From: a virus
Virus record (IMG/VR): IMGVR_UViG_3300010392_004285
DNA length: 25,546 nt
Direction: 5' to 3' (one strand)
This document shows, one piece after another, positions 1 through 14,936 of this stretch. Each line of letters begins with the position of its first letter. Position 1 is the stretch's first letter. The notes beneath the pieces were generated by a model. The model did no database searches. It had not been told where the DNA came from and saw only the letters and a list, made by a program, of their open reading frames with translations. The translations under genes were made by a program, and so were the position numbers.

Positions 1-377
1 ACCAAAGAGGATTCATTTCACTTAATGATAGTGTACAAGCACTTATGATTGCAGTGAAAAATGAACCGGAACAAGGTCATGTTCAGGTATGGAATCAGTT
101 GAGTGAGTGGCACTCAATGAATGAAATAGCAGGAATGGTAGTTGAAGTAGCTGAGTCAAGAGGAATGGAAATAAGTACTCAGCATATTCCATCACCAAGA
201 ACAGAGTACACTGGTAATCATTACTATAAGTACTCAACAGAAAAGCTTGCAAGCTTTGGATATAAACCAACAAGAACAATACTACAAGAAGTAGATTATG
301 TATTCAACGTCTTAGCTGAGTCAAATGAATACAATGATCTAAAAGATGTTGTAATACCAAAAATAAAGTGGAGATAG
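1..377 (+). CDS. 3' end of a UDP-sulfoquinovose synthase (SQD1/SqdB-like) NAD-dependent epimerase/dehydratase; the gene begins upstream of the window
   Basis: The reading frame is open from nt 3 to the stop at 375-377. The C-terminal sequence (VWNQLSEWHSMNEIAGMV...IPSPRTEYTGNHYYKYSTEKLASFGYKP...VIPKIKWR) aligns by eye to the Arabidopsis SQD1 C-terminus (RVFNQFTEQFSVNELASLV...[27 protein letters not shown]...IMPSVSWKK). It is also similar to the C-terminus of the 5978..7174 product. Confidence 0.6.
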   Translation, partial: QRGFISLNDSVQALMIAVKNEPEQGHVQVWNQLSEWHSMNEIAGMVVEVAESRGMEISTQHIPSPRTEYTGNHYYKYSTEKLASFGYKPTRTILQEVDYVFNVLAESNEYNDLKDVVIPKIKWR

Positions 378-378
378 T

Positions 379-1353
379 ATGAAGATTTTGTTTCCAGTTG
401 TTGATAGGTCTATAAGAGTGGCCACACATTTTACTCAATTTCAAAAAGCTTTGAGTAAAGTAGCCGATGTTGATTTTGTAATGAGGAAAATACCAGAGGG
501 TTATAAGACAGGTAATTATGCTAAGAAAGTACTTACGGGACAGATAAAACCAAAAAGGATATTAGATAGTTATTTCGAAAAGGATTATGACTTTATAGTC
601 ACTGACTCTGATTTTGTCTTTGTCCATGAAAATTGGAAAAGTACAAAAATTCCAAAGGCTATAATAAAGGAAGACATTTATAGTGTAAACTCGGGTTTGC
701 AAGTGAAGTGGGCTAAAGAGAATAAATTTGATATAATTTTCTATAAGTATAAGAACCCATTTTTTAAAAAATATAGAGCTGTTGAAAATATATTCAGGTG
801 TATGTGGTCACCACATTCAGTTGACATAGAAATGTTTAAAGATTATGGATTGAAAAAGAAGTATGAAGTATTGTTGGTAGGAAGACGTGGCAAAAATACT
901 TATCCAAAAAGAAATAGATTACATCACTTATTGAAAGGCAAGAAGTATTTCACATCAATCAATAGACCATTGGAGTCAAATGTGGGATGTGAAAAAGAAT
1001 GTTTAGATAAGTGGCCAGTAAAAGAAGACTATGCTAAATTATTAAATCAAGCAGAAATATGTGTTACAAGCGGACTTTCTTTTGATTATCCTGTTATGAA
1101 GTACTTTGAAATACCTGCCTCAAAATGTTTGCTTATGTCAAATTGGTTTTCAGAATTAGCCGATCTTGGTTTTAAAGATGGAGAAAATATGGTTGTGATT
1201 GATTTCAAAAACTTAGACTCTCAAATAAGATCACTTTTAAATAATAAAGAAGAATTAAAAAGAATACAAAATAATGGATATGAACTTATTCATAAATTCC
1301 ATACGTGTGATATAAGAGCAGACACCATGGTAAGGAGATTAGAAGAATGGTAG
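379..1353 (+). CDS. Putative glycosyltransferase (CgeB/Glyco_trans_1_2-like C-terminal region), paralogue A of the 3882..4853 product
   Basis: The ATG has a GGAG RBS 6 nt upstream. It is 324 aa and clearly paralogous to the 323-aa 3882..4853 product; the C-terminal block DYPVMKYFEIPA...NGYELIHKFHT matches KYPVMKFFEIPA...NGYELVHEQHT. Family assignment is tentative. Confidence 0.45.
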   Translation: MKILFPVVDRSIRVATHFTQFQKALSKVADVDFVMRKIPEGYKTGNYAKKVLTGQIKPKRILDSYFEKDYDFIVTDSDFVFVHENWKSTKIPKAIIKEDIYSVNSGLQVKWAKENKFDIIFYKYKNPFFKKYRAVENIFRCMWSPHSVDIEMFKDYGLKKKYEVLLVGRRGKNTYPKRNRLHHLLKGKKYFTSINRPLESNVGCEKECLDKWPVKEDYAKLLNQAEICVTSGLSFDYPVMKYFEIPASKCLLMSNWFSELADLGFKDGENMVVIDFKNLDSQIRSLLNNKEELKRIQNNGYELIHKFHTCDIRADTMVRRLEEW

Positions 1354-1934
1354 AAAAAGCAAAAATGAAGGAGCCAACAGCCGCTCAGTATGACGTGCAC
1401 TTTAAAAAACAAGTTGTTGGTAATCCTAAACAGAGAAAGAAAAATCAATGGCACAGAAGGGGATTCTATGAAATAGCAAAAAGTTTTTTACCTAAAGACA
1501 AGGGAGTAATTGAACTTGGTTGTGGTGATGGATTTTTTACAAATTTTTTAGATGAAGGACAAGGATACCTCGGCATTGATTTTTGTACAGTACTCATAAA
1601 TCATGGTAGAAAAATGTATCCTAATCATACTTTTATACAGGCAGATGTAAGGGAACCAGGCTTATCAATGTTATTCACAGATAAGTTTTCTTATGTTTCC
1701 ATAGAAGTAATGGAGCATATAAAGAATGACTTAGAAGTTATTGCAAGTATACCAACTGGGTCTGATTTTATATTTTCAGTTCCAAGTAGGGATAATATGT
1801 TTCATGTTAGATATTTTAAGAGCTTCGATCAAATAAAAGATAGATATAAACACCTATTAGAGTTTTTAGATCACGGTAAGCACGAAACAACTCAAGGTAA
1901 TTTTATAAGAGTCAGTAAAACAATAAGAAAGTAA
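1347..1934 (+). CDS. Class I SAM-dependent methyltransferase
   Basis: It has SAM motif I VIELGCGDGFF and a downstream acidic-loop/post-II motif (FSYVSIEVMEHI). It overlaps the upstream gene by 7 nt (ATGGTAG), so it is translationally coupled to the GT-like gene, and has an AAGGAG RBS. Confidence 0.7.
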   Translation: MVEKAKMKEPTAAQYDVHFKKQVVGNPKQRKKNQWHRRGFYEIAKSFLPKDKGVIELGCGDGFFTNFLDEGQGYLGIDFCTVLINHGRKMYPNHTFIQADVREPGLSMLFTDKFSYVSIEVMEHIKNDLEVIASIPTGSDFIFSVPSRDNMFHVRYFKSFDQIKDRYKHLLEFLDHGKHETTQGNFIRVSKTIRK

Positions 1935-1947
1935 TAATGGAGAATAA

Positions 1948-3900
1948 ATGAACAATATTGAAGTTCAAAAACTTAGAAGCGATACATTGAAATACTTTGG
2001 TGAGGGTCGTGCTAATAAGATAGACAAGATGAATAGCCGTCAGTTAGAAGATTTGAAAAGAGAAATTCATCAAATAAAACTTAAGAGTATGCCATCACAT
2101 GCGGAATTGAGAACAAGGAAAAAGAACATGGTTGTATTAGATGCTGGTTCACCATGTCCATCACATGCAGAATTGAGAGTAAGGAAACGGGAAGCTAGAG
2201 AAAAAGCTTCATTTGGACCCGAAATTTCTGTAATTATTCCATATATGCATACACCAGAGAGGTTTCCATTATTAATGTCGTGTATATCTTCTTTGAGTTC
2301 TGAAGTTGAGATATGTGTAGTTGAAATTGGTAAAAAGAGAAGTGTTTTCTTACCACCAGATGATTTTGAATATATGTTCGTATATTATTCTAACATGATG
2401 CATAGAGGATGGGCATTAAACCTTGGCGCTAGACATCTAGCGACAGGTAGGAAGTTGGTTTTATTGGATGCTGATGTAATAATACCAGATAACTTCTTTG
2501 ATATGGTAAAGTGGTGTGACTATCCAGCAGTTGCTTGGAATAAGATGTATTATTTAGATGAACATAATACTAGAGATTATATGCTACGTTTATTACAGAA
2601 AGGTGAACGAGGTATATTTAGTGAATATGCAGTAAAAGAAAAATGTGAAACTGTAAAAGAACCAAGATTTGATGGTCCAGCAGGTGGTATAACTGTGGTG
2701 CCAAGAGATATATTTTTCCAATTAAAAGGAGTTCCTGAAAACTTTGAAGGCACTTGGGGTGGTCCGGATAACGCTTTCGCAGCAAAACTTCGAGCATTTG
2801 GCAATCCATTTAAGACGTTGAATTTGGATAGTATACATCTTTATCACTCAAAGAATACTCCAAGAAATAACAATATTGCTTTGAAAGCAAGAACAATGAT
2901 GCGATGGACAAAAGGACAATGGGCAAATGAAATAAACGTAGTTGGTAATAATTGGGGTAATAAGAAAAAATCCGTCTCTAAAGTTGATACACAAATGAAG
3001 TATGTCTTACCTGATTATATGAACGTCAGCCTATTGAGAAATATTGCTATAGGTAATACTGAACAAGAATATATTGAGCCAGGTATAGTTATTGATGATT
3101 TATGTAAGATGTGGTCTGGTTTTAATAGAGGAACTCTAAAAAGAGTATTTGACTCTAAAGAAACAATGCTTACTTTGGCAATGTTGTCACTGATTAGAAC
3201 TGAAACAATGTTAAGTATGTTGGATCACTGGGAAGCTACTAGATACATAAAATCGAATATAGCTTTTAATGTACAGGGTAGAGAATGGTTAAGCAATATT
3301 AATAAAAAACTAATTGAAGATAAAGTAGAAGAATATTTCGATAAAAGTTTTTTGACTTTTACAAATTCAAATAGAGGAACTGGTGTTCCAAGACATAATA
3401 TGACACGTAAGGCACTTGAGTTCGATACACCTTATATTATGACTACAGATGATGATATGTTTTTCCCACCGGGCTCAGTTGAAGCGCTTATTTCTATTTT
3501 AGAAGATAACCCAGACTACGGCGCGGTGGATATATGGGTCCATCCAAATTTAAATGCCTGGTTTATAAGACCGGATAAAATGATGTATAGACAACCAACA
3601 TCACCATTTGGTCTTGTTGATGGTATGGGATCAGCCGCATCCGTTATAAGGAGAGAAGTATTTAATACTTGTGATTATGATCCTAATTACTACGTAGGTT
3701 GGGCGGATATTGATTTTTGTATGCAAATGAGAAAGAGTAAATGGAAGTTGGGTATTCTTGCAATACCTGATTATAAAGCGTTAAATCTTAAACAAAGGGG
3801 AACAGATACTTATAAGAGATATGCTCAATTTAGACATGATGCTCAACATCTTGGTAATAGTTCTGTGAGGTTTCAGCAAAAATGGCACATGCAGATATAA
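1948..3900 (+). CDS. Two-domain family-2 (GT-A fold) glycosyltransferase
   Basis: The N-domain has ISVIIPYMH...LVLLDADVIIP (DxD) and ...TWGGPDNAF, which resembles the GWGGEDDD block of GT2/GT-A enzymes. The C-domain has YIMTTDDDMFF (DxD) and VGWADIDFCMQMRKSKWKLG, which resembles GT2 GxEDxDLCxR. An N-terminal ~90 aa leader carries a duplicated PSHAELR(T/V)RK(K/R) peptide. Confidence 0.65.
   Translation: MNNIEVQKLRSDTLKYFGEGRANKIDKMNSRQLEDLKREIHQIKLKSMPSHAELRTRKKNMVVLDAGSPCPSHAELRVRKREAREKASFGPEISVIIPYMHTPERFPLLMSCISSLSSEVEICVVEIGKKRSVFLPPDDFEYMFVYYSNMMHRGWALNLGARHLATGRKLVLLDADVIIPDNFFDMVKWCDYPAVAWNKMYYLDEHNTRDYMLRLLQKGERGIFSEYAVKEKCETVKEPRFDGPAGGITVVPRDIFFQLKGVPENFEGTWGGPDNAFAAKLRAFGNPFKTLNLDSIHLYHSKNTPRNNNIALKARTMMRWTKGQWANEINVVGNNWGNKKKSVSKVDTQMKYVLPDYMNVSLLRNIAIGNTEQEYIEPGIVIDDLCKMWSGFNRGTLKRVFDSKETMLTLAMLSLIRTETMLSMLDHWEATRYIKSNIAFNVQGREWLSNINKKLIEDKVEEYFDKSFLTFTNSNRGTGVPRHNMTRKALEFDTPYIMTTDDDMFFPPGSVEALISILEDNPDYGAVDIWVHPNLNAWFIRPDKMMYRQPTSPFGLVDGMGSAASVIRREVFNTCDYDPNYYVGWADIDFCMQMRKSKWKLGILAIPDYKALNLKQRGTDTYKRYAQFRHDAQHLGNSSVRFQQKWHMQI
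2092..2189 (+). repeat. Two ~33-nt imperfect direct repeats (2092-2124 and 2157-2189) inside the GT2 gene, encoding the PSHAELR(T/V)RK(K/R) peptide twice
   Basis: ccatcacatgcggaattgagaacaaggaaaaag matches ccatcacatgcagaattgagagtaaggaaacgg at 28 of 33 positions. Confidence 0.6.
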
Positions 3901-4853
3901 AAATACTATGGTTAGCAACAGATAGAACTAAACGAGTTGCTAATATATTTGGTCCTTTACAAAAAGAAGTATCAAAAATAGCAAAAGTTCATTTTATTTT
4001 TAGACAATTACCATTAGGTATGTTGCCAAAAGCTTGGCAACAAAAGTTCACTAAAGGCAAGGAAAAACCACTGAGATTATTAAATCCTAAGTTTGCAAAC
4101 GAATTTGACTTCATTATGATTGATGCTCCATTTGCTTTTCTTGATGAAGATTGGGATAAGATAAAGACAAAAAAGGGTGTGTTAATAGAGGACCAACATG
4201 GTGATAATCTTGAATATACTAAAAGATATATGAGTCATGGATTTGATGTGTTTTTTACTAGATACAATAATATTTTAAAACAACATCCATGGCTAAAGGA
4301 TCAGACTATAAAATGGTTGCCTCACTCATTTGATCCAGAAGTATTTAAAGATTATAGAGAATATAAAAAGTGGGATTGTTTGATGGTCGGTAGAACCCAA
4401 CCAAAAATATATCCACTAAGATGGAAAGCACATGAACAAATGAGTAATTCTGATGTGGCCTATAATAGAGTAGAAAGACCAGAAGAAAACGTACCAGAAC
4501 AAATGAGATGGCCAATTCACAAAGAGTATGCGCAGTTAATAAATTGTTCTAAAATATCATTTACTTGTACCAGTGTATTTAAATATCCTGTTATGAAGTT
4601 TTTTGAGATACCAGCATGTAACTCATCTTTATTTGCTGACTATAACAAGGAGATAGGTGATTTAGGATTTGAACCAAATAGAAATATGGTTGACTTAAAT
4701 GGAGTTGGAGATATAACACTTTTAGTCAAAAGTTGGTTAAAATCACCAAAAATGTTGAAAGAATTATCTCAAAATGGATATGAATTAGTGCATGAACAAC
4801 ATACAGCTAAGAAAAGGGCTGAACAATTTATTGATTATGTAGAGGAAATATGA
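3882..4853 (+). CDS. Putative glycosyltransferase (CgeB/Glyco_trans_1_2-like), paralogue B of the 379..1353 product
   Basis: It is 323 aa and roughly 35-40% identical by eye to the 379..1353 product, with the same domain order. The ATG at 3882 overlaps the upstream GT2 gene by 19 nt, so the exact start is uncertain. Confidence 0.45.
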   Translation: MAHADIKILWLATDRTKRVANIFGPLQKEVSKIAKVHFIFRQLPLGMLPKAWQQKFTKGKEKPLRLLNPKFANEFDFIMIDAPFAFLDEDWDKIKTKKGVLIEDQHGDNLEYTKRYMSHGFDVFFTRYNNILKQHPWLKDQTIKWLPHSFDPEVFKDYREYKKWDCLMVGRTQPKIYPLRWKAHEQMSNSDVAYNRVERPEENVPEQMRWPIHKEYAQLINCSKISFTCTSVFKYPVMKFFEIPACNSSLFADYNKEIGDLGFEPNRNMVDLNGVGDITLLVKSWLKSPKMLKELSQNGYELVHEQHTAKKRAEQFIDYVEEI

Positions 4854-5458
4854 AAGATTACCTGAAAGTAAATGAAGAAAAAACAAATCAACTTCTTAGA
4901 AAACTTAAAGATCAAAGGTATATGAATGCCAAAAGAAATGCCAAAAGAAATACCTTTAAATTTATTAAGGGACTCATAAGTAGAAAATGGGAAATACTTG
5001 ACATAGGATGTAGGGATGGTATGTGGTTAAATATATTAAAAGGTGCTAAGTTTAATAACTTAAGAGGTATTGATATTTCAGAAAAGGCACTTGAAATAGC
5101 TCGAAAGAAAGGTCATAATGTAGTGAGAGGAGATGCACAAGAGTTACCATTCCCAGACGAGGAATTTCATTTTGTTAGTATAATTCACACATTAGAACAT
5201 TGTCCCGAACCCCAAAAGGTACTATCTGAAATAAAAAGAGTACTTAAACCAAATGGTAGAATACTTGTAGTGGTTCCATTGCAGAAGAAGGAGCCGGTGC
5301 CAACCGTGTGGGCACATTACCATTGTTTTAGCAGTTCGAAAGAAGTTATTAATATGCTCGTTAATAATGGATTTAAAAAGATTAAAGTAAACGCAAAACA
5401 AAGACCTCATAATAGGTTCTTGTTTAGGAAAATAAGACATAAAGATAAGGAAGAATAA
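4850..5458 (+). CDS. Class I SAM-dependent methyltransferase (second copy, diverged)
   Basis: It has SAM motif I ILDIGCRDGMW, FVSIIHTLEHC, and ATGA overlap with the upstream paralogue-B GT-like gene. This GT-like + MTase arrangement mirrors 379..1934. Confidence 0.7.
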   Translation: MKDYLKVNEEKTNQLLRKLKDQRYMNAKRNAKRNTFKFIKGLISRKWEILDIGCRDGMWLNILKGAKFNNLRGIDISEKALEIARKKGHNVVRGDAQELPFPDEEFHFVSIIHTLEHCPEPQKVLSEIKRVLKPNGRILVVVPLQKKEPVPTVWAHYHCFSSSKEVINMLVNNGFKKIKVNAKQRPHNRFLFRKIRHKDKEE

Positions 5459-5985
5459 TGGCCGGACACTGGAATATAATAATTGATTTATTAAAAAACG
5501 ATCCTCCAAAGATATGTGCTGAAGTTGGTGTATATAGAGGACGGTTTGCATCACAAATACTTGGTAGATTTTCTGAAATTACAACTTATTATTGTATTGA
5601 TACATGGAAACATTATGATGACTTCACTGCAATTTTACGCCCACAAGGAGAAATGGCTAAATGTGATTTTAATAAAATATTCCGTGATTTTAAAGTCAAA
5701 ATAAAACCTTATAAAAGTAAAGTTAAAATATATAGAATGACTAGCAAAAAAGCAGCCAAACTGATTAAAGATGGCACCTTAGATTTTGTTTTTATAGATG
5801 CTAACCATGCTTATGATTATATTAAGGAAGACATAGGAATATGGTTGCCAAAGGTTAAGAAAGGTGGTGTAATTTCTGGACATGATTACAATGTCAAACG
5901 ATTTGGAGTAACTGAAGCAGTTGATGAATTACTACCAAAGGCAAATTCAAAGAAAACAGTTTGGTACTGGAGGGTAAATGGATAA
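5458..5985 (+). CDS. TylF/MycF-like (Methyltransf_24 / macrocin O-methyltransferase-type) SAM-dependent sugar O-methyltransferase
   Basis: It has EVGVYRG at the SAM site and the hallmark FVFIDANHAYDYIKEDIGIWLPKVKKGGVISGHDY block, which resembles DGDHSYE...Y.KV..GG.IIFDDY of TylF/MycF. The start ATG overlaps the upstream stop (TAATG). Confidence 0.6.
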   Translation: MAGHWNIIIDLLKNDPPKICAEVGVYRGRFASQILGRFSEITTYYCIDTWKHYDDFTAILRPQGEMAKCDFNKIFRDFKVKIKPYKSKVKIYRMTSKKAAKLIKDGTLDFVFIDANHAYDYIKEDIGIWLPKVKKGGVISGHDYNVKRFGVTEAVDELLPKANSKKTVWYWRVNG

Positions 5986-7174
5986 TATTTTAGTAATGGG
6001 TGGTGATGGTTTTTGTGGTTGGCCAACATCTTTACATTTATCCAGACATGGGTATAATGTAGTTATTGTAGACAACTTAGTAAGAAGAAAAACAGATATT
6101 GAACTTGGATGCGATTCTCTTACACCAATATCACCTATACGAGAAAGAATTAAAGCATGGAAAGAATTAACTGGAAATGAAATTGCATATAAGTATATAG
6201 ATGTTTCAGACCACTATCATAGAATTTTGAGTTTGATAAATGAATATAAACCAAAAGCGATTGTACATTTTGCGGAGCAAAGAGCTGCTCCGTATTCTAT
6301 GAAGTCATCGTTCCATAAAAGATATACAGTTAATAATAATTTAAATGCCACTAATAATATACTATGTGCGATTGTTGAATCTGGATTAGATATTCATTTG
6401 GTTCATCTTGGAACTACAGGATATTATGGATATTCAGATGTAGGTATGATGATACCGGAAGGATACTTATCAGTAAAAGTTGATGTAGAAGGTGATGAAA
6501 GAGAAATTGAGATAATGTATCCACCAAGTCCTGGAAGCGTATATCATATGACAAAATGCCAGGATGCTATTCTATTTTTATATTTCAATAAAAATGATGG
6601 AGTAAAGGTAACAGACTTACATCAAGGTATAGTGTGGGGAACACAGACAGAAGAAACAAAACTTGATGAAAGATTGATTAACAGATTTGACTATGATGGT
6701 GACTATGGAACAGTTTTGAATAGATTTCTAATGCAGTCACAAATAGGATATCCACTAACAGTGTATGGAACGGGTGGACAAACAAGGGCTTTTATACATA
6801 TACAAAATAGTGTAGAATGTATAAGATTGGCTGTTGAAAGTACTCCATCCGATGAAAAAGTAAGAATTTTTAACCAAACAACAGAGTGTTTAAAAGTATA
6901 CGATTTAGCTCAAAAAATTAGTACAATTACAGGTGCTACAATAAGAACATATGATAATCCACGAAACGAAGACCCAGAAAATGATCTCAAATTTGTAAAT
7001 GATGGTTTATTAAATTTGGGTTTGAAACCAATTACTTTAGACAATGGTTTGATGGAAGAAGTAATGGATATAGCAAAGAAATATGGTCATAGGTGTAATA
7101 AAGATAAAATAATATGTACTTCATTATGGAGTAAAAACAAAGAAATAGATTTTATAGGGAAGGAAATTGTATGA
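5978..7174 (+). CDS. UDP-sulfoquinovose synthase (SQD1/SqdB/Agl3 family) extended SDR
   Basis: The N-terminus [34 protein letters not shown] matches the SQD1 signature [44 protein letters not shown] matches HFGEQRSAPYSM. The catalytic Thr sits in LGTTGYYGY (SQD1 LGTMGEYGT). The YHMTK Tyr-His-x-x-Lys matches YHLSK. [10 protein letters not shown] matches TDLNQGVVYG, and LNRF...[16 protein letters not shown] matches LNRF...GHPLTVYGKGGQTRGY. Confidence 0.75.
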   Translation: [398 protein letters not shown]

Positions 7175-8100
7175 AGAAACCGAAAATATTATTAATAACT
7201 GATGTATGGGGATGGGGTGGTCACCATCGTGGAGAACAAATAGTAAATTGGTTGTCTGATGAATTTGAATTTGAGCTGATAACTCAGGCAATGTTTGTTA
7301 GACAACAATATAAGTTAAAACTTAATGAGTATGATTTATATTATCCATTATTTCATGTACAATTACAGTTAAAGGATTTACAGGACAGAATGGATAAAGT
7401 TGTAACAGTTGTAACAGTTAGACAACCCATAAAAGAAAAATTTGCAAAGTCTGGTGTTAGTGCCAAGGAAGGTTTTCTAAGGCTTGCAAACAAATGCAGA
7501 GCAGTATTTGTCAATAATATGCTGGCATTAAGAGAGCTAAGAACATATTATAAAGGCCCGACATTCTATGTTCCAAGGGGAGTAGATGAAAAGCTATTTT
7601 CATATAGTCCTTATCCAAGTGGTACATTTTCTGCTTGTTTTGTTGGCAAAGGTAGGATGCCAGAAAAGGGATATAGTAGTCATATAGTACCGGCCTGTGC
7701 TAGATCAAATACACGTATTATTTCCAATATTAAAAATTATAGAAATGCTGACTCACAGGATATTTTAAAAACACAGATATATGATAGAGCGCATGTTTTG
7801 ATGGTGGCAAGTACTTTTGATGGAACGCCAAATCCAGCACTTGAAGCTGCTTCATGTGGTAGACCAATTTTATCTAATAGAATCGGTAATATGCCAGAGT
7901 TTGTAGAGAGTGGAGTTAATGGATTTTTAGTTAGAAGAAATATTAATGACTATGTAGAGAAGTTAAATTGGATGAAAAGAAATACTGCAAAGTGTGATAA
8001 GATGGGTCAAAGAGCTAGACAAAAAATAGAAGATGAGTGGTGTTGGAGAGAAACTCTTAATAGGTATGAAAGGCCAGCACTTAGGGTAGTTTTAAAATAA
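7171..8100 (+). CDS. GT4-family (GT-B fold) glycosyltransferase; candidate SqdX/SQD2-like sulfoquinovosyltransferase by context
   Basis: The C-terminal GT4 motif VLMVASTFDGTPNPALEAASCGRPILSNRIGNMPEFVESGVNGFLV is compared with SqdX [46 protein letters not shown]. The ATGA overlap with the SQD1-like gene mirrors the bacterial sqdB-sqdX adjacency. Confidence 0.65.
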   Translation: MKKPKILLITDVWGWGGHHRGEQIVNWLSDEFEFELITQAMFVRQQYKLKLNEYDLYYPLFHVQLQLKDLQDRMDKVVTVVTVRQPIKEKFAKSGVSAKEGFLRLANKCRAVFVNNMLALRELRTYYKGPTFYVPRGVDEKLFSYSPYPSGTFSACFVGKGRMPEKGYSSHIVPACARSNTRIISNIKNYRNADSQDILKTQIYDRAHVLMVASTFDGTPNPALEAASCGRPILSNRIGNMPEFVESGVNGFLVRRNINDYVEKLNWMKRNTAKCDKMGQRARQKIEDEWCWRETLNRYERPALRVVLK

Positions 8101-8117
8101 AATGTGAGGTGAATAAA

Positions 8118-8477
8118 ATGAGTGAAGTAGAGTTTTATTATAATGGAGAAAAAGCGTTTAGAACATATGAATATGGTTCAGATTATTACTTTGATGATGG
8201 ACATTCATATGCATCATCAACTACTTCTGCCAGCTATGCCGCATCGGCTACTTCTGATAGTGCTTTAGCTACACAGTATGCATTACAGTCATATGCTGAG
8301 AAGCTGGCTAATAGAATGTATGAAGATAACTTAAAAGATGTTGATAAAGATTATGTTGCTGGTATGATATATGCAATACTAATGAAAGAAGATATACCTA
8401 AATCAACAGTAGAAAGACTTATGGACGATAGACCAGGGAACGAAAAATTATTTAAAGACGAGGATTTTTTAATATGA
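8118..8477 (+). CDS. Hypothetical protein with a Ser/Thr/Ala-rich low-complexity segment
   Basis: The ORF track starts at a GTG at 8109. An in-frame ATG at 8118 has a GAGG RBS 9 nt upstream, so I call 8118. The product contains SSTTSASYAASATSDSALAT. I recognised no family. Confidence 0.5.
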   Translation: MSEVEFYYNGEKAFRTYEYGSDYYFDDGHSYASSTTSASYAASATSDSALATQYALQSYAEKLANRMYEDNLKDVDKDYVAGMIYAILMKEDIPKSTVERLMDDRPGNEKLFKDEDFLI

Positions 8478-9274
8478 AAAATGTTTTAGTGACAGGCGCA
8501 AGTGGTTATATTGGACAAAATATGATAAGGCACTTGGAGACAAAAGGATGTAGATCGTTTCCTTATGATGTAAAAATGAGGGAATGGGATAGATCAGATA
8601 TAAATGATTTTAAAAAATATGATGGAGTTGTTCACCTAGCTGCTCTATCGGGTATAGTGGCGTGTCAAAATGATATTGACACAGCAATAATGGATAACAT
8701 AATAATATCAACTAAGATATTAGAGAAATCATTAGAGGCTAAAATACCCATAGTATTTACTTCTAGTCAATCAGCAAAGAATCCAACTAGTAGTATATAT
8801 GCTACAATGAAAAGAACAGTTGAATTAATGGCAAGAGATGTGATGAATAGAGGTGGTGATGTAAAATTACTTCGCTTAGCTAATGTGTATGGTGGATTTG
8901 AGTATGTAAAGAAAAAACAAACAGTTATAAAACAGTTTTTGTTAAAGAGAGCTAAAGGTGAGATAATACTTATCCATGGCGATGGAAGACAAGAACGTGA
9001 CTTCATACACGTAGACGACGTGTGTGAATTTATCTGGTTATCTTTGACTCATAAGGATAAGATAATGGAACCTATTGATATTGGTACGGGTATTGGAACT
9101 AATATGCTTGACTTGGCCAGAATGTGTAGACACCAATCAGCTTTTACTGATCGCAGAGATGTTGGAGAAACAAGTGGTATAGCTGATGTAACCATGGCTA
9201 AAGAACTGTTTGACTATAAAGCACCGAATAGAATACAGTCATATCTTGATACGGACCCAAGTTTACTTTCTTAG
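8474..9274 (+). CDS. NAD(P)-dependent sugar epimerase/dehydratase/reductase (extended SDR)
   Basis: It has the Rossmann motif VLVTGASGYIGQNMIRHL and the catalytic YATMK (YxxxK). The start overlaps the upstream stop (ATGA). Confidence 0.7.
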   Translation: MKNVLVTGASGYIGQNMIRHLETKGCRSFPYDVKMREWDRSDINDFKKYDGVVHLAALSGIVACQNDIDTAIMDNIIISTKILEKSLEAKIPIVFTSSQSAKNPTSSIYATMKRTVELMARDVMNRGGDVKLLRLANVYGGFEYVKKKQTVIKQFLLKRAKGEIILIHGDGRQERDFIHVDDVCEFIWLSLTHKDKIMEPIDIGTGIGTNMLDLARMCRHQSAFTDRRDVGETSGIADVTMAKELFDYKAPNRIQSYLDTDPSLLS

Positions 9275-9315
9275 TTGAATAGGATATAATAGAAGAAAAA
9301 GTTGGAGGAAATGAA

Positions 9316-9771
9316 ATGTTTGAAGACATTGTAAAATTAAAGTTCGAAGGTGTCGATCTTGGAAATAGAGAGATTGAACCAGAAATCCGAGCACAGTTAA
9401 GAAAAGGTCTTGACTATGGTATAGGTATGATAGAGGATGCAGAAGGTGAAAACCTTGATGTTGAATTGAAAGAATTAATTAATAGATTTTTCGATCAGAG
9501 CATGGATGAAATAGCCCAAATGTATTTGGATGCTTTTACTGCTGATGAGCTGATTACTATGCTGGATTTTGAACTGACACCTTTGGCAAAAAAGAAGTTG
9601 GAAGTTTCATTTAAACTTCAAAAGTTTATGGCAGATGGTCTTGCTAAGTTTATGATGGATGAAATGAAAGCAGAGGAAGACCCACAAGAAGATTTTGTTG
9701 ACGCTTTGAAAAGGTTTGATTGGGATAGTCAAGAAGGTTTAGATAATGTAGTATGGGATTCAAAGGAGTAA
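9316..9771 (+). CDS. Hypothetical acidic protein
   Basis: It has a GGAGG RBS 7 nt upstream. It is 151 aa and strongly acidic. I recognised no family. Confidence 0.5.
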   Translation: MFEDIVKLKFEGVDLGNREIEPEIRAQLRKGLDYGIGMIEDAEGENLDVELKELINRFFDQSMDEIAQMYLDAFTADELITMLDFELTPLAKKKLEVSFKLQKFMADGLAKFMMDEMKAEEDPQEDFVDALKRFDWDSQEGLDNVVWDSKE

Positions 9772-9776
9772 AAATA

Positions 9777-10049
9777 ATGGGTTTATTTGGTGACATATTC
9801 GAAGATGATGATTTTGAAATATCAAGTGAAGAAGAAGAAATTGAACTTGAACTAGAAGAAGATATAGATGATTGGGGTACGCCAAAGAAAAGCAGAGGCG
9901 CTACCTGGGACACCGGTAATAAACCGGATATCTGGAACGCTGATGAGCCATGGACATGCGACGACGACTGTGATCCGAAATGTGTTGGTGGTGATTGTGG
10001 TCCTGATACCGCTAAGAAAAGCTTCGATGTGGATGACTTCTTTAGCTAA
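9777..10049 (+). CDS. Hypothetical very acidic protein with a Cys/Asp-rich C-terminus
   Basis: The ORF track begins at 9753 inside the upstream gene. The ATG at 9777 has an AGGAG RBS 8 nt upstream, just after the upstream stop, so I call 9777. The C-terminus reads WTCDDDCDPKCVGGDCGPD. Confidence 0.45.
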   Translation: MGLFGDIFEDDDFEISSEEEEIELELEEDIDDWGTPKKSRGATWDTGNKPDIWNADEPWTCDDDCDPKCVGGDCGPDTAKKSFDVDDFFS

Positions 10050-10726
10050 TCACTAACAAAAGGTTTTATAAAGTCGTCATAAACTCTTTGGTGTTTTATC
10101 CAATAATCTTGTTGACCACCCGCAGACACATCGCCCGGTTCTGATATAGCTATGAATCGGGCGGTTGGTACGTTTAGGCCATGGTATCCATAAGATGCGC
10201 ATTTCAATAGAAAAGCCCAGTCAAGAAGTCGTTTATACTTGTTATCAGTAACTAAACCTACTTTATCAATTACACTCATTTTAAACATTGAGTTTGAACT
10301 AATGTAATTGCCTTGTGTCAAACGACTTAAATCCCAAGGATCAGCCGGGAACTTCCTATTTACAGCTCCTTTAAATTCAAACCCCGCATATGCAAATCCA
10401 ATATTATCTTCCGAATCCTTTAAAGCTTTATACAATCTATCCAACATATTCCTACCGAGTACTATATCCCTGTCTATCATTATGTAGTACTTAGGAAGGT
10501 CTGGGATATTTTTCTTTGCCCATTTTATACCTTCTAAAGCGTTGGTTGGTATATTATGATCGCCTTCGCTGGATATCCAAAAGTACTTCAGAGTATTTCT
10601 CTTAATTGTCTTTTTTGTATCCTTGCTTACCCAATCTCCTGATTTTAATGGTGTCACAACTAACAAATCAGGAAACTTTGTTGCTCTTATTACTTCGATT
10701 TTATTCCTAGTCTTTCTATTCGCCAT
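10046..10726 (-). CDS. Hypothetical protein, possibly GT-A-like glycosyltransferase (DxD-type)
   Basis: It is 226 aa with YYIMIDRDIV (a candidate DxD) in a layout reminiscent of small GT-A capsule/LPS transferases. The assignment is weak. It overlaps the + strand gene convergently by 4 nt. Confidence 0.3.
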   Translation of the reverse strand: MANRKTRNKIEVIRATKFPDLLVVTPLKSGDWVSKDTKKTIKRNTLKYFWISSEGDHNIPTNALEGIKWAKKNIPDLPKYYIMIDRDIVLGRNMLDRLYKALKDSEDNIGFAYAGFEFKGAVNRKFPADPWDLSRLTQGNYISSNSMFKMSVIDKVGLVTDNKYKRLLDWAFLLKCASYGYHGLNVPTARFIAISEPGDVSAGGQQDYWIKHQRVYDDFIKPFVSD

Positions 10727-11037
10727 TCATCCTCATTATCATCACATTCTTTAAAGTCTTTTCTTCTATTTCTAATTTCTTTAAACCATTTACCAAATTG
10801 TCTTAACTTTCTGAATAACCATTTGTCTTTAATTTTACTCCACACGTTTTTCTCCTCCCAAATAGCTCCACAAATCGCTATTATGAAAGCGATGGGTCCT
10901 AATAAGCATATGAATCCCAAGAATAATTTCCATACCCAGTGTTCGCCATCATACTCATCATTCTCTAATTGGTAAAAAACCATTATAGTACTGCAAATGA
11001 CCCACACATGTGTTATTATCCAGAACCACCACGGCAT
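10690..11037 (-). CDS. Small membrane protein with two predicted TM helices
   Basis: The hydrophobic segments are FWIITHVWVICSTIMVF and LFLGFICLLGPIAFIIAICGAIW, and the C-terminus is basic. It overlaps the downstream gene by 37 nt. Confidence 0.45.
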   Translation of the reverse strand: MPWWFWIITHVWVICSTIMVFYQLENDEYDGEHWVWKLFLGFICLLGPIAFIIAICGAIWEEKNVWSKIKDKWLFRKLRQFGKWFKEIRNRRKDFKECDDNEDEWRIERLGIKSK

Positions 11038-11051
11038 TATTCATATCCTTT

Positions 11052-11348
11052 CTATAGTCTTTCAGCTAGTCGTTTGATAGAAGCTTCGAAGTCAGTCTTC
11101 ATCGCTTCTCGTTCTTCATCAAGAGTTTCGAAAAACTTTGTTACACCAAGTCTTTTCGTATCTTCTTGCATCTCAGCCATCATTCTATATTCACTCAAAA
11201 AGAAAACAGCAGATATTACATTCAAATCTTGATAAACTTCTTCCGCATCGCTTACATTTACATCTTTAAATGTTATCGACACAGATGGTGTTATACTTGA
11301 ATAATTTTGCGTATTTATCGTTGCTTTTTTACTTACAGTTATATCCAT
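11052..11348 (-). CDS. Hypothetical protein
   Basis: It is a 98-aa ORF with an ATG start, packed tightly against its neighbours. Confidence 0.45.
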   Translation of the reverse strand: MDITVSKKATINTQNYSSITPSVSITFKDVNVSDAEEVYQDLNVISAVFFLSEYRMMAEMQEDTKRLGVTKFFETLDEEREAMKTDFEASIKRLAERL

Positions 11349-11354
11349 TACAAT

Positions 11355-12221
11355 TTACCTCATTAAACAATTTTTTATTACTTCTACTACATTTTCTATC
11401 AAAAACTCTGGGTATAATGTCTTAACATTATGATATATATCATCTATTAAACACCACTTTATCTTCGCATGTTGTCTAACGATCCAATCAACATCCTCTA
11501 AATTATCCACAGTTAACTTATGAAACATATTACCATACCATTTATGTTCTAGTGGTAACAACGGCACGCATCCATCTTCCATTATATAAAATGTCCATGG
11601 ATTTAAGTACCCTATTTCATAATTCTTTTTGCTGTCAATAAGTACTGTGAAGTCAACTTCTGCCCAGTCAATCATGGCTTGATTTACCATATTGTCACGT
11701 TCATATTGTTGATACTTTACTTTATCTAATTTTTCAGCCTTATATAGAACCTTCTTATCAGGGAATAATTGTGCGTACTTCCTGTAGTACTTCTCAAACG
11801 ACTTCAACTTGTCTTCAAGATTTACAGTTGAATAAGCCAGAGCAAACGGCCTCTCCTCCTCTCTATCGAAATCAGTTTTGATTTCATCAAGCCAGTGAGG
11901 TAGATAGCCAAATTCTCTCCTGTTCTGTAAAGCAGGCTCAAAGAAAAATACCTTGAACTTTTTCAACCAGTCATATTCTCTTTTAGTCATTGCTAACTCA
12001 CCATCAAATATGACAACTGGTATCTTTGTTCTTATGTAATTCTCAATTATAGCCGCTTGCATGGCATACTCATCCGGCATTATTGATTGGTCAACCCAAT
12101 CAATAAATAACCCGTCAAGTTTAGGCATTCCTCTATCCATTAAATCATACACATTTATAACAGGCAAGGATTCCCTTAACTTGTTCACAATATTTTCTCT
12201 AAAGGATATTACTCCAATCAT
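11355..12221 (-). CDS. Hypothetical protein (288 aa)
   Basis: It is a long, uninterrupted ORF that overlaps the upstream gene by ATGA. I could not assign a family with confidence. Confidence 0.5.
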   Translation of the reverse strand: MIGVISFRENIVNKLRESLPVINVYDLMDRGMPKLDGLFIDWVDQSIMPDEYAMQAAIIENYIRTKIPVVIFDGELAMTKREYDWLKKFKVFFFEPALQNRREFGYLPHWLDEIKTDFDREEERPFALAYSTVNLEDKLKSFEKYYRKYAQLFPDKKVLYKAEKLDKVKYQQYERDNMVNQAMIDWAEVDFTVLIDSKKNYEIGYLNPWTFYIMEDGCVPLLPLEHKWYGNMFHKLTVDNLEDVDWIVRQHAKIKWCLIDDIYHNVKTLYPEFLIENVVEVIKNCLMR

Positions 12222-12541
12222 TTTTTAGTTATTGACCTTCCCCTTGTTTTAGGCTCTTCTTTTTTAACTTCTTTACCTTTTGCCTTACCTTTTGATTCTG
12301 CTGCTTGTTCCAGCAAATAAGTATCAATAATTTTTTGTCTTACTGGTACGGTAATGGCATCAAGTCTACTTCTTCTTTCGAATTGAATTGTTTTAAAAGT
12401 CTTACCTAAGAAAGTTCCAAGGTAAGCTAGTGCTTCCTCTTGGCTATATGCTGCAATACATGCAGACCATAATTTTTGCTCCCCATCTTCACTACTCCTA
12501 ATTTCATAATCAATTCTAAATACACTAATTCCGTCTGGCAT
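12218..12541 (-). CDS. Hypothetical protein with a Lys-rich basic C-terminal tail
   Basis: It is 107 aa and ends KGKAKGKEVKKEEPKTRGRSITKK. Confidence 0.5.
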   Translation of the reverse strand: MPDGISVFRIDYEIRSSEDGEQKLWSACIAAYSQEEALAYLGTFLGKTFKTIQFERRSRLDAITVPVRQKIIDTYLLEQAAESKGKAKGKEVKKEEPKTRGRSITKK

Positions 12542-12758
12542 CTCCTAAATCCTCCTCGAGTACATCGAATACCTCTGTATACTCTATATTTTTTCCTTTT
12601 GATTTAATCACTTTGAAATAGGTTATTTGTTGTCCTATTTCTTTTGTGTCCTTCTGACCTATCATAGCATGACCATTAAGAAAAAGATCATCTTTCTTTA
12701 ATTTAGCATTCACAAGGTCTTCTACTACCCTAAGTCTTAACCATTGATATTTAGTCAT
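12525..12758 (-). CDS. Hypothetical protein
   Basis: It is 77 aa and overlaps both neighbours in operon-like fashion. Confidence 0.45.
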   Translation of the reverse strand: MTKYQWLRLRVVEDLVNAKLKKDDLFLNGHAMIGQKDTKEIGQQITYFKVIKSKGKNIEYTEVFDVLEEDLGDARRN

Positions 12759-13059
12759 TTTGACTTTTTTCCTCCAAATCTTTTAAAATTCTATAAATTT
12801 CAGTCAATTCTGTTTCAAAATCGTCCTTGAAAGAGTAAAAGGAATCACCAATTAGACCTAATCTGAACTTACATTTTTTTGCTGCTTCATCTACTGAGTT
12901 ACTACCTACAATTCTTTCCTCAATGCACTGTTCACATCGTTCTGGTTCAAACCCTCTAGCATCATCTAAAACTGCAACTGACAGATTTTCATCATAATAA
13001 CCACATATAAACTTTCCACTTCCGAATTTCAGAAATTCACATTTCTCTAAACATCTCAA
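12751..13059 (-). CDS. Hypothetical Cys-containing protein, with an apparent TTG start
   Basis: There is no in-frame ATG. A TTG at 13059 sits 8 nt downstream of a GGAGG, so I take it as the start. It has scattered Cys residues (C..C...C..C pattern). Confidence 0.45.
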   Translation of the reverse strand: MRCLEKCEFLKFGSGKFICGYYDENLSVAVLDDARGFEPERCEQCIEERIVGSNSVDEAAKKCKFRLGLIGDSFYSFKDDFETELTEIYRILKDLEEKSQND

Positions 13060-13076
13060 CTACATCACCTCCTGGA

Positions 13077-13349
13077 CTACTCCTTATCCTTTTCGTCCTC
13101 TTTTATATACTTCCTTATTTTCATGGCTCGTTTCATTGTATCTACGGCCTTTTTACTCGGTTTCTTATTGATTGTTTGACCCTTTGGCATCAAGTTGACT
13201 CTTTTCTTCCTTGGTTTCTTTCTTCTTCTTGTTATATTTCCCTCTTTATCTATATCAACTTCATACTTATCAACTACTTCATTGGTCTCATAATCAGTAA
13301 CCGTTACTTTTCCTTTTCCTTTCTTCTTAGGATATATGTCTTCATACAT
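13077..13349 (-). CDS. Lys/Arg-rich highly basic small protein; possibly a DNA-binding or internal protein
   Basis: It is 90 aa with KKKGKGK...RRRKKPRKKR...KKPSKK. Confidence 0.5.
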   Translation of the reverse strand: MYEDIYPKKKGKGKVTVTDYETNEVVDKYEVDIDKEGNITRRRKKPRKKRVNLMPKGQTINKKPSKKAVDTMKRAMKIRKYIKEDEKDKE

Positions 13350-13515
13350 CGTCTGGCCATGCCTCCCCGAAATGCTTTATCTTCCATTCTGTTCTATGAA
13401 GTACTCTTGCAATATGTTCCAATTTCTGGTCAATTCCAGCAAGTGCTTCATCCTGCATTTCCATAACTGCATAAAACTCAATATTCAGTGCTTCATAATC
13501 AGTTGGTTCACGCAT
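13342..13515 (-). CDS. Small hypothetical protein (57 aa), not in the supplied ORF track
   Basis: I found it by hand. ATG at 13515..13513 follows AAAGGAAAAGAA. It translates to MREPTDYEALNIEFYAVMEMQDEALAGIDQKLEHIARVLHRTEWKIKHFGEAWPDDV. Its stop overlaps the start of the 13077..13349 gene (ATGTATGA), and it fills an otherwise unexplained 180-nt gap. Confidence 0.35.
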   Translation of the reverse strand: MREPTDYEALNIEFYAVMEMQDEALAGIDQKLEHIARVLHRTEWKIKHFGEAWPDDV

Positions 13516-13527
13516 TTCTTTTCCTTT

Positions 13528-13812
13528 CTATATCCAATCCATTTCATCCATTATTTTTGCTTTCTTTACCTGTGCTTTATTATATGACATTGTTTTTGGT
13601 TGTTCTTCTTCTGGGTCTACTCTTTCTATGTTAAGATATGATCCCTTTGCCAATATAAATTTTGGTAAATAATCACCTGTTGCTTTTTTATCACATTCAT
13701 CACAAAACCAATAATCACCATTATAAGTTGCTATTCGCATCACATCTGATTGAATAATTTTATATGGTTGTTGTCCACTTCCCGGTAAATATGTTATTTT
13801 CCACTGAGTCAT
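13528..13812 (-). CDS. Small protein with a CxxC zinc-ribbon-like motif
   Basis: It is 94 aa with FCDECDKK and overlaps the upstream uvsX by ATGA. Confidence 0.5.
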   Translation of the reverse strand: MTQWKITYLPGSGQQPYKIIQSDVMRIATYNGDYWFCDECDKKATGDYLPKFILAKGSYLNIERVDPEEEQPKTMSYNKAQVKKAKIMDEMDWI

Positions 13813-14936
13813 TTCTTTAAGCTCCTTTTCACAGTTTTTTTCTTCATTGTTGGCTTCGGCTTTGGTGGTTCTGGCTCAAATTTATCTGCCTCTTGTACCA
13901 ATGCCTCTGCTTCTTTTACTTCTTGGCTTACAGTTGAGTATCCAGTATTCTCCAACCACTTATCTATTTTCTCAACTAAGCCAGATATTTGTGGCAGCCA
14001 TTCTTGTGCTTTGATTTCACCTTGTACTTTATCAGCACCGTATGTATACCATCCACCTCCACCTCTTTTCATTATATCAGATTCTACGGCCAAATCCATT
14101 ATACCAGCCCACTTATTGATACCATTCTTGTAGTCAATATCAATTGTAGCCTGTTGGAATGGTGGATACATTCTATTCTTTAAGGTAGTTGCAGTGATTC
14201 TATTACCAATGACTGCACCACTTTTAACATTACCCTCTTTTAAGTACTCTTTCCTAAGAGATATTAGAATTGATGGGAATAACTTCATCGCCTTCCCACC
14301 ACCTATCTGGTCAGGCATTGGTACTGTTGAAGGTGAACCATAATAGTGACCACAAGCGATCGCTAATGAATTTTGCCCAATACAGACATTCAAGAGTAGT
14401 TTCAAAGTACTCCTAATTTCTTTCTGTAATAGACCTTGGTCTGCCTTCGGCTCACCACCTACAGCATCAGTGAATGACTTATATCTATCAAGACCACCAA
14501 CTGAGTCAACTCCAATGACATATCCTTGTTCACCTGATTCTCTTATCTGTGCAATGGCTATCTTAACTTCATGTATCCATGGTGTGTATATATACAGGAT
14601 ATTTTTTGGATCAAGTCCCCATCTTAGACAGAACTCATCAGTAATACCACCTTCAGTGTCTATTATGATTGGTTTATAACCAAGCTTTTGAGCATTAGCC
14701 ATACACAATACCATAAAACTTGACTTGAAACTATGCTCTGGTCCAACAATAGCCACTAAGTTTCTTGAAGGAATACCACCTCTTAAAGAACCTGATAAAA
14801 TTCTATTCAAGTCCAATGCCGGTGTGGATAACATAAATCTACCAGTTGCTATTTCTGAATCTGCTAAAACACTTACATGCGCACCTTTCACGTTCTTTTC
14901 TATACTTTTCTTTAAATTATCAAAAACTTCACTCAT
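13809..14936 (-). CDS. uvsX: UvsX-type RecA-like recombinase
   Basis: ILSGSLRGGIPSRNLVAIVGPEHSFKSSFMVL aligns to T4 UvsX ALSGEITGGMQSGLLILAGPSKSFKSNFGL, which is the Walker A region. It is 375 aa, typical for UvsX. Confidence 0.9.
   Translation of the reverse strand: MSEVFDNLKKSIEKNVKGAHVSVLADSEIATGRFMLSTPALDLNRILSGSLRGGIPSRNLVAIVGPEHSFKSSFMVLCMANAQKLGYKPIIIDTEGGITDEFCLRWGLDPKNILYIYTPWIHEVKIAIAQIRESGEQGYVIGVDSVGGLDRYKSFTDAVGGEPKADQGLLQKEIRSTLKLLLNVCIGQNSLAIACGHYYGSPSTVPMPDQIGGGKAMKLFPSILISLRKEYLKEGNVKSGAVIGNRITATTLKNRMYPPFQQATIDIDYKNGINKWAGIMDLAVESDIMKRGGGGWYTYGADKVQGEIKAQEWLPQISGLVEKIDKWLENTGYSTVSQEVKEAEALVQEADKFEPEPPKPKPTMKKKTVKRSLKK

Follow-up and report, generated by a model that had tools for sequence, protein, structure and literature searches.

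A predicted glycan-biosynthesis cassette swapped at a fixed locus in uncultured T4-like phages

To our knowledge, the target of a phage glycan gene cluster has been proven only for DNA glucosylation, DNA arabinosylation, and the virions of mycobacteriophages. Outside the phages, Mimivirus and the Megavirinae carry clade-specific fibril-glycan gene clusters and chloroviruses encode the capsid glycosylation enzyme A064R; the giant-virus clusters combine rare bacterial-like sugars, glycosyltransferases, a sugar methyltransferase, and multidomain transferases with variable gene content. Here, we analyzed a 25,546-nucleotide (nt) sequence of an uncultured T4-like phage from marine sediment (IMG/VR record IMGVR_UViG_3300010392_004285; source contig, JGI 3300010430 Ga0118733_100041782; the whole stretch is called the window), in which positions 1 to 10049 of the plus strand hold an island of sugar-modifying genes with a similar makeup. 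Tandem soluble glycosyltransferases together with an O-methyltransferase are present in this phage genome, and the same arrangement, cytoplasmic, without export genes, and in a lytic phage, defines the virion-glycosylation cassettes of mycobacteriophage clusters O and F (Freeman et al. 2023, cited by PMC11600133 and PMC12619734). Likewise, the "cell-wall/LPS" (lipopolysaccharide) clusters of the T4-like cyanomyoviruses P-SSM2, S-SCSM1, and S-SCSM2R place many glycosyltransferases and epimerases in variable regions of a T4-like backbone (PMC12801897). Clusters for DNA glycans, comprising the alpha- and beta-glucosyltransferases (alpha-gt and beta-gt) of T4, the poly-arabinosyl-5hoC genes of RB69 and DLP3 (PMC13326640), and the MT/5mYOX/GT sets (bioRxiv 10.1101/2023.12.21.572611), also share with the window GT-B and GT-A enzymes related to those of LPS and teichoic acid synthesis, a phage-encoded nucleotide-sugar supply, and, in T4-like phages, a location among early DNA-metabolism genes.

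With a probability of about 0.9, the region is a phage-borne glycan-biosynthesis cassette. It is best read as a hypervariable, cytoplasmic cassette that would build an O-methylated, sulfonated oligosaccharide; the presence of a sulfoquinovose-type sugar in this glycan is somewhat favored over its absence, and virion proteins are put forward as the target only tentatively.

Gene content and operon structure of the island

Families were assigned to the island proteins by Pfam, NCBIfam, PHROGs, and PDB sequence searches and folds by AlphaFold2 and Foldseek. The 13 open reading frames (ORFs) of the plus strand between 1 and 10049 are all codirectional and form one translationally coupled operon of soluble enzymes, since the intergenic gaps across genes 379..9274 range from -19 to +13 nt. 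They are listed below (aa, amino acids; pI, isoelectric point; SAM, S-adenosylmethionine; SDR, short-chain dehydrogenase/reductase).

1..377 (ORF 45-377), plus strand: SQD1-like protein, type A, C-terminal 110 to 130 residues (NF041015, 7e-32, model positions 255-384)
379..1353, plus strand: CgeB-like GT-B glycosyltransferase, paralogue 1, 324 aa (PF13524, 3.4e-12, 47 bits against a cut-off of 25)
1347..1934, plus strand: class I SAM methyltransferase, 195 aa (PF13649, 2.4e-6, a weak match of 28.6 bits against a cut-off of 27)
1948..3900, plus strand: dual GT-A transferase, 650 aa (PF02709, 3e-5, and TIGR04283, residues 93-293; PF00535, 4.8e-9, residues 466-569)
3882..4853, plus strand: CgeB-like GT-B glycosyltransferase, paralogue 2, 323 aa (PF13524, 2e-14)
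4850..5458, plus strand: SAM methyltransferase of the Methyltransf_11 type, 202 aa (PF08241, 2.1e-24)
5458..5985, plus strand: SAM methyltransferase of the Methyltransf_24 type, 175 aa (PF13578, 1.7e-17; phrog_2675, 1.9e-26)
5978..7174, plus strand: SQD1-like protein, type B, 398 aa (plant SQD1, PDB 1qrr, 3.6e-91, residues 2-386)
7171..8100, plus strand: GT4 (GT-B) glycosyltransferase, 309 aa (PF00534, 3.7e-13; PF13692, 2.6e-12)
8109..8477, plus strand: small acidic protein with a Ser/Thr/Ala-rich tract, 122 aa, pI 4.4 (no family match)
8474..9274, plus strand: short extended-SDR nucleotide-sugar epimerase or reductase, 266 aa (PF01370, 6e-32; phrog_540, 8e-47)
9316..9771, plus strand: acidic helical protein, 151 aa, pI 4.2 (orthologues of 36 to 44% identity in related contigs L003 and L033)
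9753..10049, plus strand: very acidic small protein, 98 aa, pI 4.05 (orthologues in L003, L033, and L041)

In sum, five glycosyltransferase catalytic domains (one from each CgeB-like paralogue, two GT-A domains on a single chain, and one GT4) stand beside two SQD1-family enzymes, the first of them cut by the window edge, a short SDR, three SAM methyltransferases, and three small acidic proteins (pI 4.0 to 4.4). All gene classes that an earlier, sequence-only reading had placed in this island were recovered where it located them, with scores well beyond chance, and its description of a sugar-modification island with the target left open is upheld. Its account is corrected in these respects: the island extends beyond the left edge of the window, where its first gene is incomplete, and the facing GT-A gene at 10046-10726 is a core gene of the lineage, as described below. 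The window yielded no tRNA, no Rfam family, and no significant repeat, and a sigma-70 scan of it stayed at chance level (68 matches against 66.5 expected); the only sigma-70-like match in an island intergenic gap was TTTACT-17-TATAAT at 9262-9290, before 9316..9771.

The type A fragment is 85 to 87% identical to full-length orthologues of 386 to 388 aa in L003 and L033, and the orthologue at L003:8837-9997 matched 1qrr at 7e-78 over residues 1-385. Compared with the known SQD1/SqdB/Agl3 UDP-sulfoquinovose synthases, both phage paralogues (type A as its L003 orthologue) are alike to the SQD1 crystal-structure sequence over their full length, including the family-specific insertions, and both keep the catalytic Thr145 and Tyr182-His183-x-x-Lys186 (LGTTGYYG and VYHMTK in type B, GTTGEY and IYHTSK in type A of L003, and LGTMGEYG and FYHLSK in 1qrr), whereas both score below the NCBIfam equivalog cut-off and their neighbors are neither sulfolipid nor archaeal N-glycosylation genes. 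Types A and B share only ~31% identity and are therefore different genes. Judging from its sequence, type B is likely a UDP-sulfoquinovose synthase. It is 70 to 90% identical to many metagenome proteins named UDP-sulfoquinovose synthase by JGI, and its nearest cellular SQD1 relatives belong to metagenome-assembled genomes (MAGs) of Desulfobacteraceae and Nitrospirae (65 to 70% identity); a tblastn search with the type B protein returned no match in 50,697 phage records. The sole putative viral UDP-sulfoquinovose synthase in the open literature searched was reported as an auxiliary gene of a Mu-like metagenomic virus (PMC7785012), a report that counts in favor of the auxiliary-metabolism alternative weighed below.

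Homologues of island genes (SQD1-B, methyltransferase, and GT4) were also encountered on short contigs binned into Thermoplasmata, Woesearchaeota, and other MAGs, namely, L007 (JAEHCK010000166.1), L029 (CBFCXS010000040.1), and L033 (PVMK01000088.1). L029 has in addition a homologue of the phage gene 11052-11348, and L033 has a uvsX/gp46 backbone. All three are probably phage contigs mis-binned as cellular genomes; for the "archaeal" MAG matches L007 and L029, this follows from the island-gene homologues that they carry and, in L029, from the 11052-11348 homologue.

Among the remaining genes, the two CgeB-like paralogues are 35% identical over their full length; 379..1353 has a 66% identical orthologue in L003, and 3882..4853 has orthologues of 43 to 48% identity in L002 and L004 and none in L003. 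The translation of 1347..1934 contains the SAM motif IELGCGDG and is 25% identical to that of 4850..5458, which has a 77% identical orthologue in L003. The third methyltransferase, 5458..5985, is probably a sugar O-methyltransferase, and its orthologues adjoin SQD1-B in L034 and L051. The GT4 gene overlaps the end of SQD1-B by 4 nt (7171-7174) and has a 79% identical orthologue in L003, where an orthologue of 8109..8477 also occurs (42% identity). The SDR gene 8474..9274 is a conserved 3' anchor that ends the island in L003, L033, L043, L045, and L046; an SDR of 43% identity ends the island of L051, and the SDR is kept in L041 without an island. Neither the small acidic proteins nor the unknowns that flank the islands of L003 and L033 had a match in PHROGs or Pfam.

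The 650-aa transferase 1948..3900 consists of a ~55-aa N-terminal module, a basic PSHAELR repeat, and two GT-A domains with acidic motifs (DAD near residue 175 and DDD near residue 515), and the two domains are separate ORFs in L002 and L004. The module, MNNIE.Q.L..DTLK..GE..AN.ID.M...QL..LK, was located at 1948-2200 (plus strand) in the window, L033:1820-2047, and L034:2209-2391, and it is common to different folds, GT-A in the window and L003 and GT4 in L033 and L034. It may be a docking or targeting element, and its fusion to a dual GT-A or to a GT4, depending on the locus, suggests a shared docking element for the first transferase of the cassette. The basic motif PSHAELR(T/V)RK after the module is duplicated (DNA repeat 2092-2121 / 2158-2187).

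Cassette exchange and the conserved facing glycosyltransferases

Searches with the dual GT-A protein, SQD1-B, and the GT-B family recovered related contigs, and in about ten of them the slot of the island is filled by different sets of genes. L003/L039 and L033 are closest to the window; their backbone shares 85 to 88% identity with it (UvsX, gp46, and GT-B), but whole genes of the island differ. L003 is without 3882-4853 (CgeB-2) and 5458-7174 (PF13578 methyltransferase and SQD1-B), whereas L033 has, in place of the dual GT-A, the two CgeB-like genes, and two methyltransferases, a pair of other GT4 genes, three unknowns, one sulfotransferase-like gene, and a different methyltransferase. Both L003 and L033 have Dam-type methylase genes upstream of the island, SQD1-A at or near its 5' end, and the SDR and two acidic proteins at its 3' end. 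In more distant relatives, gp55, gp47, gp46, uvsX, GT-B, and GT-A still stand in this order, and a convergent block of 9 to 13 genes, unrelated to the window genes, comes next. Taken together, the blocks code for methyltransferases, SDRs, hexapeptide acyltransferases, DegT and class IV aminotransferases, NeuB, cytidylyltransferase, adenylylsulfate (APS) kinase, radical SAM enzymes, FkbM methyltransferase, PIG-L deacetylase, and sulfotransferases. L041 and L044 keep GT-B without an island, together with the GT-A in L044 and the SDR in L041. A conserved backbone order combined with island content that differs by whole genes is the pattern that a glycan-serotype cassette, swappable at one fixed locus, would produce.

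The facing strand of the window (10046-25535, minus) is a T4-like early region with the gp55 late sigma factor, gp47, gp46, and UvsX, the last of which is at most 31% identical to that of any sequenced phage. In 50,697 phage records, megablast found no match to the island or the backbone, and tblastn found none to the GT-A and GT-B proteins encoded next to the island. The lineage that hosts the island is one of deep-branching T4-like phages. The minus-strand genes nearest to the island are as follows.

10046..10726, minus strand: GT-A-fold glycosyltransferase, 226 aa, convergent with the island (AlphaFold2, predicted local distance difference test [pLDDT] score 89.4, and Foldseek)
10690..11037, minus strand: small hydrophobic protein, 115 aa (hydropathy maximum 2.75; orthologues in L003 and L033)
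11052..11348, minus strand: protein of 98 aa accompanying islands (homologues in or beside the islands of L029, L051, and L052)
11355..12221, minus strand: compact GT-B-fold glycosyltransferase, 288 aa, downstream of uvsX (AlphaFold2, pLDDT 92, and Foldseek)

By their predicted folds, the products of 10046..10726 and 11355..12221 are glycosyltransferases. For the former, which had been noted from the letters alone as a possible GT-A, the assignment is supported at the level of the modeled fold (pLDDT 89): Foldseek matched WrtF, AvpGT, TarP, and SpsA at 1e-8 with a TM-score of ~0.6, and D85 and D87 of the DxD motif are invariant in 32 sequences. This gene is a core gene of the lineage rather than island cargo, because it has 375 homologues, on contigs of up to 240 kb, and in distant relatives it adjoins baseplate genes with no island near. 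The GT-B gene had not been part of the earlier inventory; its modeled fold matched SenB, BshA, WaaG, and 8x3q at 2e-6 to 1e-5, its identity to the L003 and L033 proteins is 87 to 88%, and it occurs in 11 of the 11 loci compared (a partial match in L050). A homology to T4 beta-gt, suspected from the motif KNYEIGYL..ME.GCVPLL, was rejected: phmmer and profile searches of the PDB were null, and hhalign of the family against beta-gt gave a probability of 0.2% and an E value of 0.25 over a 35-column stretch only, the fold being a generic compact GT-B. Together with the lack of any PF09198-type match, this result for 11355-12221 bears out the earlier view that the glycosyltransferase families differ from the T4 alpha- and beta-glucosyltransferases. 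Between the two conserved glycosyltransferases, the hydrophobic segments of 10690..11037 probably span a membrane, and homologues of 11052..11348 occupy the corresponding position between the two genes in L045 to L048.

Predicted pathway and target of the glycan

With a hydrophobic segment defined as a 19-residue hydropathy of at least 1.6, transmembrane-grade segments are absent from all 13 island proteins (maximum, 1.44), and no polytopic membrane protein, with more than one such segment, is encoded by any of the 130 island genes of 10 related loci (including two pairs from shared contigs and hence some redundancy). The polytopic membrane proteins that characterize Wzx/Wzy- or ABC-dependent (ATP-binding cassette) O-antigen and capsule loci are thus lacking in the island, and no family of a priming phosphoglycosyl transferase, flippase, polymerase, ligase, or ABC permease was detected by Pfam in the islands of the window or its relatives. 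Since no variant contains a membrane-embedded enzyme or export family, the glycan is expected to be assembled by soluble enzymes, and the missing lipid-carrier and export functions point to assembly on an acceptor for which export is not required, unless the host supplies the machinery.

In the pathway that we propose from the enzyme families, the two SQD1-family enzymes and the short SDR would turn UDP-hexose into unusual donors. By homology, SQD1-B would most likely convert UDP-glucose and sulfite into UDP-6-sulfoquinovose, and SQD1-A would make the same sugar or a related 6-substituted one. From these, the five glycosyltransferase domains would build an oligosaccharide with a minimum of four to five residues, which the three SAM methyltransferases would O-methylate; a common core may be laid by the two conserved glycosyltransferases and the SDR and extended by the swappable cassette. 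The acceptor would be cytoplasmic and receive the glycan directly; structural proteins of the particle are the most probable candidates, and the outcome would be an acidic, variable glycan coat comparable to those of the mycobacteriophage cassettes and the giant-virus fibril-glycan clusters.

The virion is favored as the target because particles assemble in the cytoplasm and exit by lysis, which would explain the absent export genes, and because acidic, methylated, nonulosonic-acid-type glycans are typical of surfaces. As precedents, the mycobacteriophage cassettes of O-methyltransferase and glycosyltransferases (PMC11600133) and the giant-virus clusters fit this target as well. It is favored, moreover, because T4-type late-promoter motifs precede the GT-A homologue of L036 and lie inside the islands of L004 and L034: TATAAATA stands 19 to 20 nt upstream of start codons within the latter two (canonical spacing, ~19 nt) and, in L036, upstream of the GT-A homologue next to the baseplate genes gp5, gp25, and gp6.

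Several observations weigh against virion proteins as the target and, in one case, against the sulfoquinovose step. TATAAATA is absent from the window, L003, L033, and L039, against 3.5 occurrences expected by chance per 25 kb, and no one-mismatch variant precedes an island gene, so late coexpression with virion proteins is unsupported here. No acceptor was found, and the window contains no structural gene. The island lies among DNA-metabolism genes, with Dam methylases in L003 and L033 and a thymidylate-synthase homologue and a DPPY methyltransferase in the neighborhood of the L051 island. All eight transferases are basic (pI 8.9 to 10), which would be just as suitable for an anionic polymer (DNA, for example) or a membrane surface. 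Finally, type B scored 331 bits against NF041015, short of the equivalog cut-off of 575, and for this reason it is filed as SQD1-like. As for TATAAATA in relatives, it occurs in intergenic gaps 8 to 22 nt upstream of start codons at L036:9975, L036:3479, L038:2633, L041:15969 and 16017, and L048:659; these sites include the one before the GT-A homologue of L036 and one before the gp55 homologue of L048.

Remodeling of the host envelope is the alternative that survives best, although we consider it unlikely. Here, the cassette would make a new surface polysaccharide, or a decoration of O-antigen or capsule, on the infected cell by way of the lipid carrier, flippase, and ligase of the host, and superinfection would be blocked or the readsorption of progeny to debris stopped. 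Comparable clusters of glycosyltransferases and nucleotide-sugar epimerases in large T4-like cyanophages have been read in this way (PMC12801897), sister cassettes encode typical surface-glycan pathways (NeuB with cytidylyltransferase, DegT, and acyltransferases), and many O-antigen glycosyltransferases are soluble or peripheral. Nevertheless, the membrane and export families named above are missing from the 13 island genes of the window and from ~130 of its relatives, every differing cassette would have to fit the export machinery of the host, and no lysogeny genes occur in the stretches of the lineage that were read.

A DNA target is improbable. In this case, the GT-B and GT-A enzymes would glycosylate a hydroxylated pyrimidine, as in T4, RB69, DLP3, and RL38J1, and the cassette would extend the DNA-linked glycan; precedents with several sugars and phage-made donors exist (PMC13326640; bioRxiv 10.1101/2023.12.21.572611), and Dam and recombination genes flank the island. 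In the window, L003, and L033, however, no thymidylate-synthase homologue of the dCMP type (Asp177) or with D169N was found, and no C5-methyltransferase, TET-type dioxygenase, dCTPase, or nucleotide kinase; the pairs that mark the known systems, a C5-methyltransferase with a TET-like enzyme (MT/5mYOX/GT) or a D169N homologue beside glycosyltransferases (5hoC), are accordingly missing there, and Pfam detected only D12-class N6-adenine methylases upstream of the L003 and L033 islands. Palindromes of 6 bp are depleted in the window clade (858 observed against 1063 expected, a ratio of 0.81), a depletion that DNA still open to restriction would show; an 11-kb sample of T4 gave a ratio of 1.03, in line with its protected DNA. 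Packaged DNA would also be loaded with negative charge by sulfonated, sulfated, and nonulosonic-acid sugars, and the complexity of the pathway exceeds that of any known DNA glycan. The full form of this alternative, in which the conserved glycosyltransferases modify a hydroxylated pyrimidine and the cassette extends it to a methylated sulfonate/sulfate oligosaccharide, is slightly less probable again; if true, it would be a DNA hypermodification far more complex than any known and opposite to them in charge, diversifying like O-antigen under pressure from modification-dependent nucleases.

Palindromes were avoided in both sequence sets analyzed, with observed/expected ratios for 6-mers of 0.81 to 0.83 (window, L003, and L033, 66 kb; L041 to L048, 125 kb), and the corresponding 4-mer ratios were 0.59 to 0.66 for GATC, 0.53 to 0.56 for CTAG, and 0.64 to 0.76 for CATG, despite Dam-type methylase genes in the clade. 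The thymidylate-synthase homologue of L051 was set aside as a link to DNA hypermodification and was not used as evidence, as it is a backbone gene present without an island in nine other phages and has Asn177 and Asp169. Divergent homologues of this kind occur in related large phages (L051:17515-18333, L052, and L055 to L063); the family keeps Cys146, Arg166, Ser167, Asp169, Asn177, His207, and Tyr209, with the phosphate-binding Arg126-Arg127 changed to Asn-Gln and His147 to Leu. In L051 to L053, the gene stands between a 17-kb glycan island, which it follows immediately, and the gene of a small DPPY DNA methyltransferase.

Auxiliary metabolism, in which SQD1-B and GT4 would act like sqdB/sqdX to make sulfoquinovosyl diacylglycerol or a soluble sulfoglycoside, sparing phosphorus or reshaping host sulfur metabolism, is the least probable alternative: SqdX and SQD2 are GT4 enzymes, the two phage genes overlap by 4 nt, and the nearest cellular SQD1 relatives belong to sulfate-reducing Desulfobacteraceae and to Nitrospirae, but the phage GT4 has no significant similarity to neighbors of SQD1 homologues in Rhodobacteraceae and Desulfobacteraceae loci and matches cellular loci only briefly and weakly (26 to 27% identity over ~100 to 140 residues in two Nitrospirae loci), L003 has the GT4 without SQD1-B, and only two genes would be covered, so that the other four glycosyltransferase domains, the three methyltransferases, and the hypervariability would have no explanation.

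The sequence-only reading had offered three candidate targets side by side, and these can now be ranked by evidence: glycosylation of virion proteins fits best, as an inference, and the host envelope and DNA are weakened, though not settled.

Neighboring features and comparison with known systems

Elsewhere in the early region, a nearly identical translation-initiation context, GAAAGGATATGAGTCATGG, precedes three unrelated small minus-strand genes (18971-18989, 19205-19223, and 11034-11052). The minus-strand gene 19262-21754 encodes an 830-aa major-vault-protein homologue (Pfam MVP_shoulder, 6e-25, and Vault_3; PDB major vault protein, 7.6e-9, residues 476-767), which is 41 to 42% identical over 96% of its length to proteins of uncultured huge phages of 462 to 735 kb (LR756500, LR756501, and LR756503). 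Its GC content of 0.41 is the highest in the window, a strong hairpin terminator (GGGTAGGGC-tttac-GGCCCTACCC and a T run, ~19229-19252) lies 3' of it, and the gene is present in L039 and missing from the corresponding slot in L041 to L048.

The lineage offers a clean natural experiment: the locus is fixed, a core pair of glycosyltransferases is conserved, and the cassette is swapped between near-identical backbones. With it, sulfoquinovose-type, sulfated, and nonulosonic-acid chemistry enters phages; the phage glycan systems compared here have none of the three. If the glycan coats the particle, tailed phages of sediments would carry serotype-like acidic glycan shields, with consequences for adsorption, sticking to particles, and virion decay; if the target is DNA, the known chemistry of nucleic acid modification would expand. 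With either target, the two divergent SQD1 paralogues are candidates for the synthesis of new 6-substituted nucleotide sugars.

Set against the described systems, the window cassette is three to four times larger than the mycobacteriophage cassettes, includes its own nucleotide-sugar synthases, among them the SQD1 type, and has no sequence relationship to them; the hosts there are Actinobacteria, whereas the host of the window phage may be of a Gram-negative type. From the cyanomyovirus clusters, it differs in lineage (by the UvsX identity given above) and in its sulfoquinovose-type and sulfotransferase chemistry. The giant-virus clusters belong to viruses of eukaryotes, with no homology to the window cassette shown. 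Unlike the DNA glycan clusters, the window, L003, and L033 yielded no base-activating enzyme, the glycan is predicted to be larger and anionic, and palindromes are avoided. The cassette is thus best filed with the virus-encoded glycan biosynthesis clusters, among which it is distinguished by its SQD1-type/sulfotransferase chemistry, its conserved core pair of glycosyltransferases, and its exchange at a fixed site.

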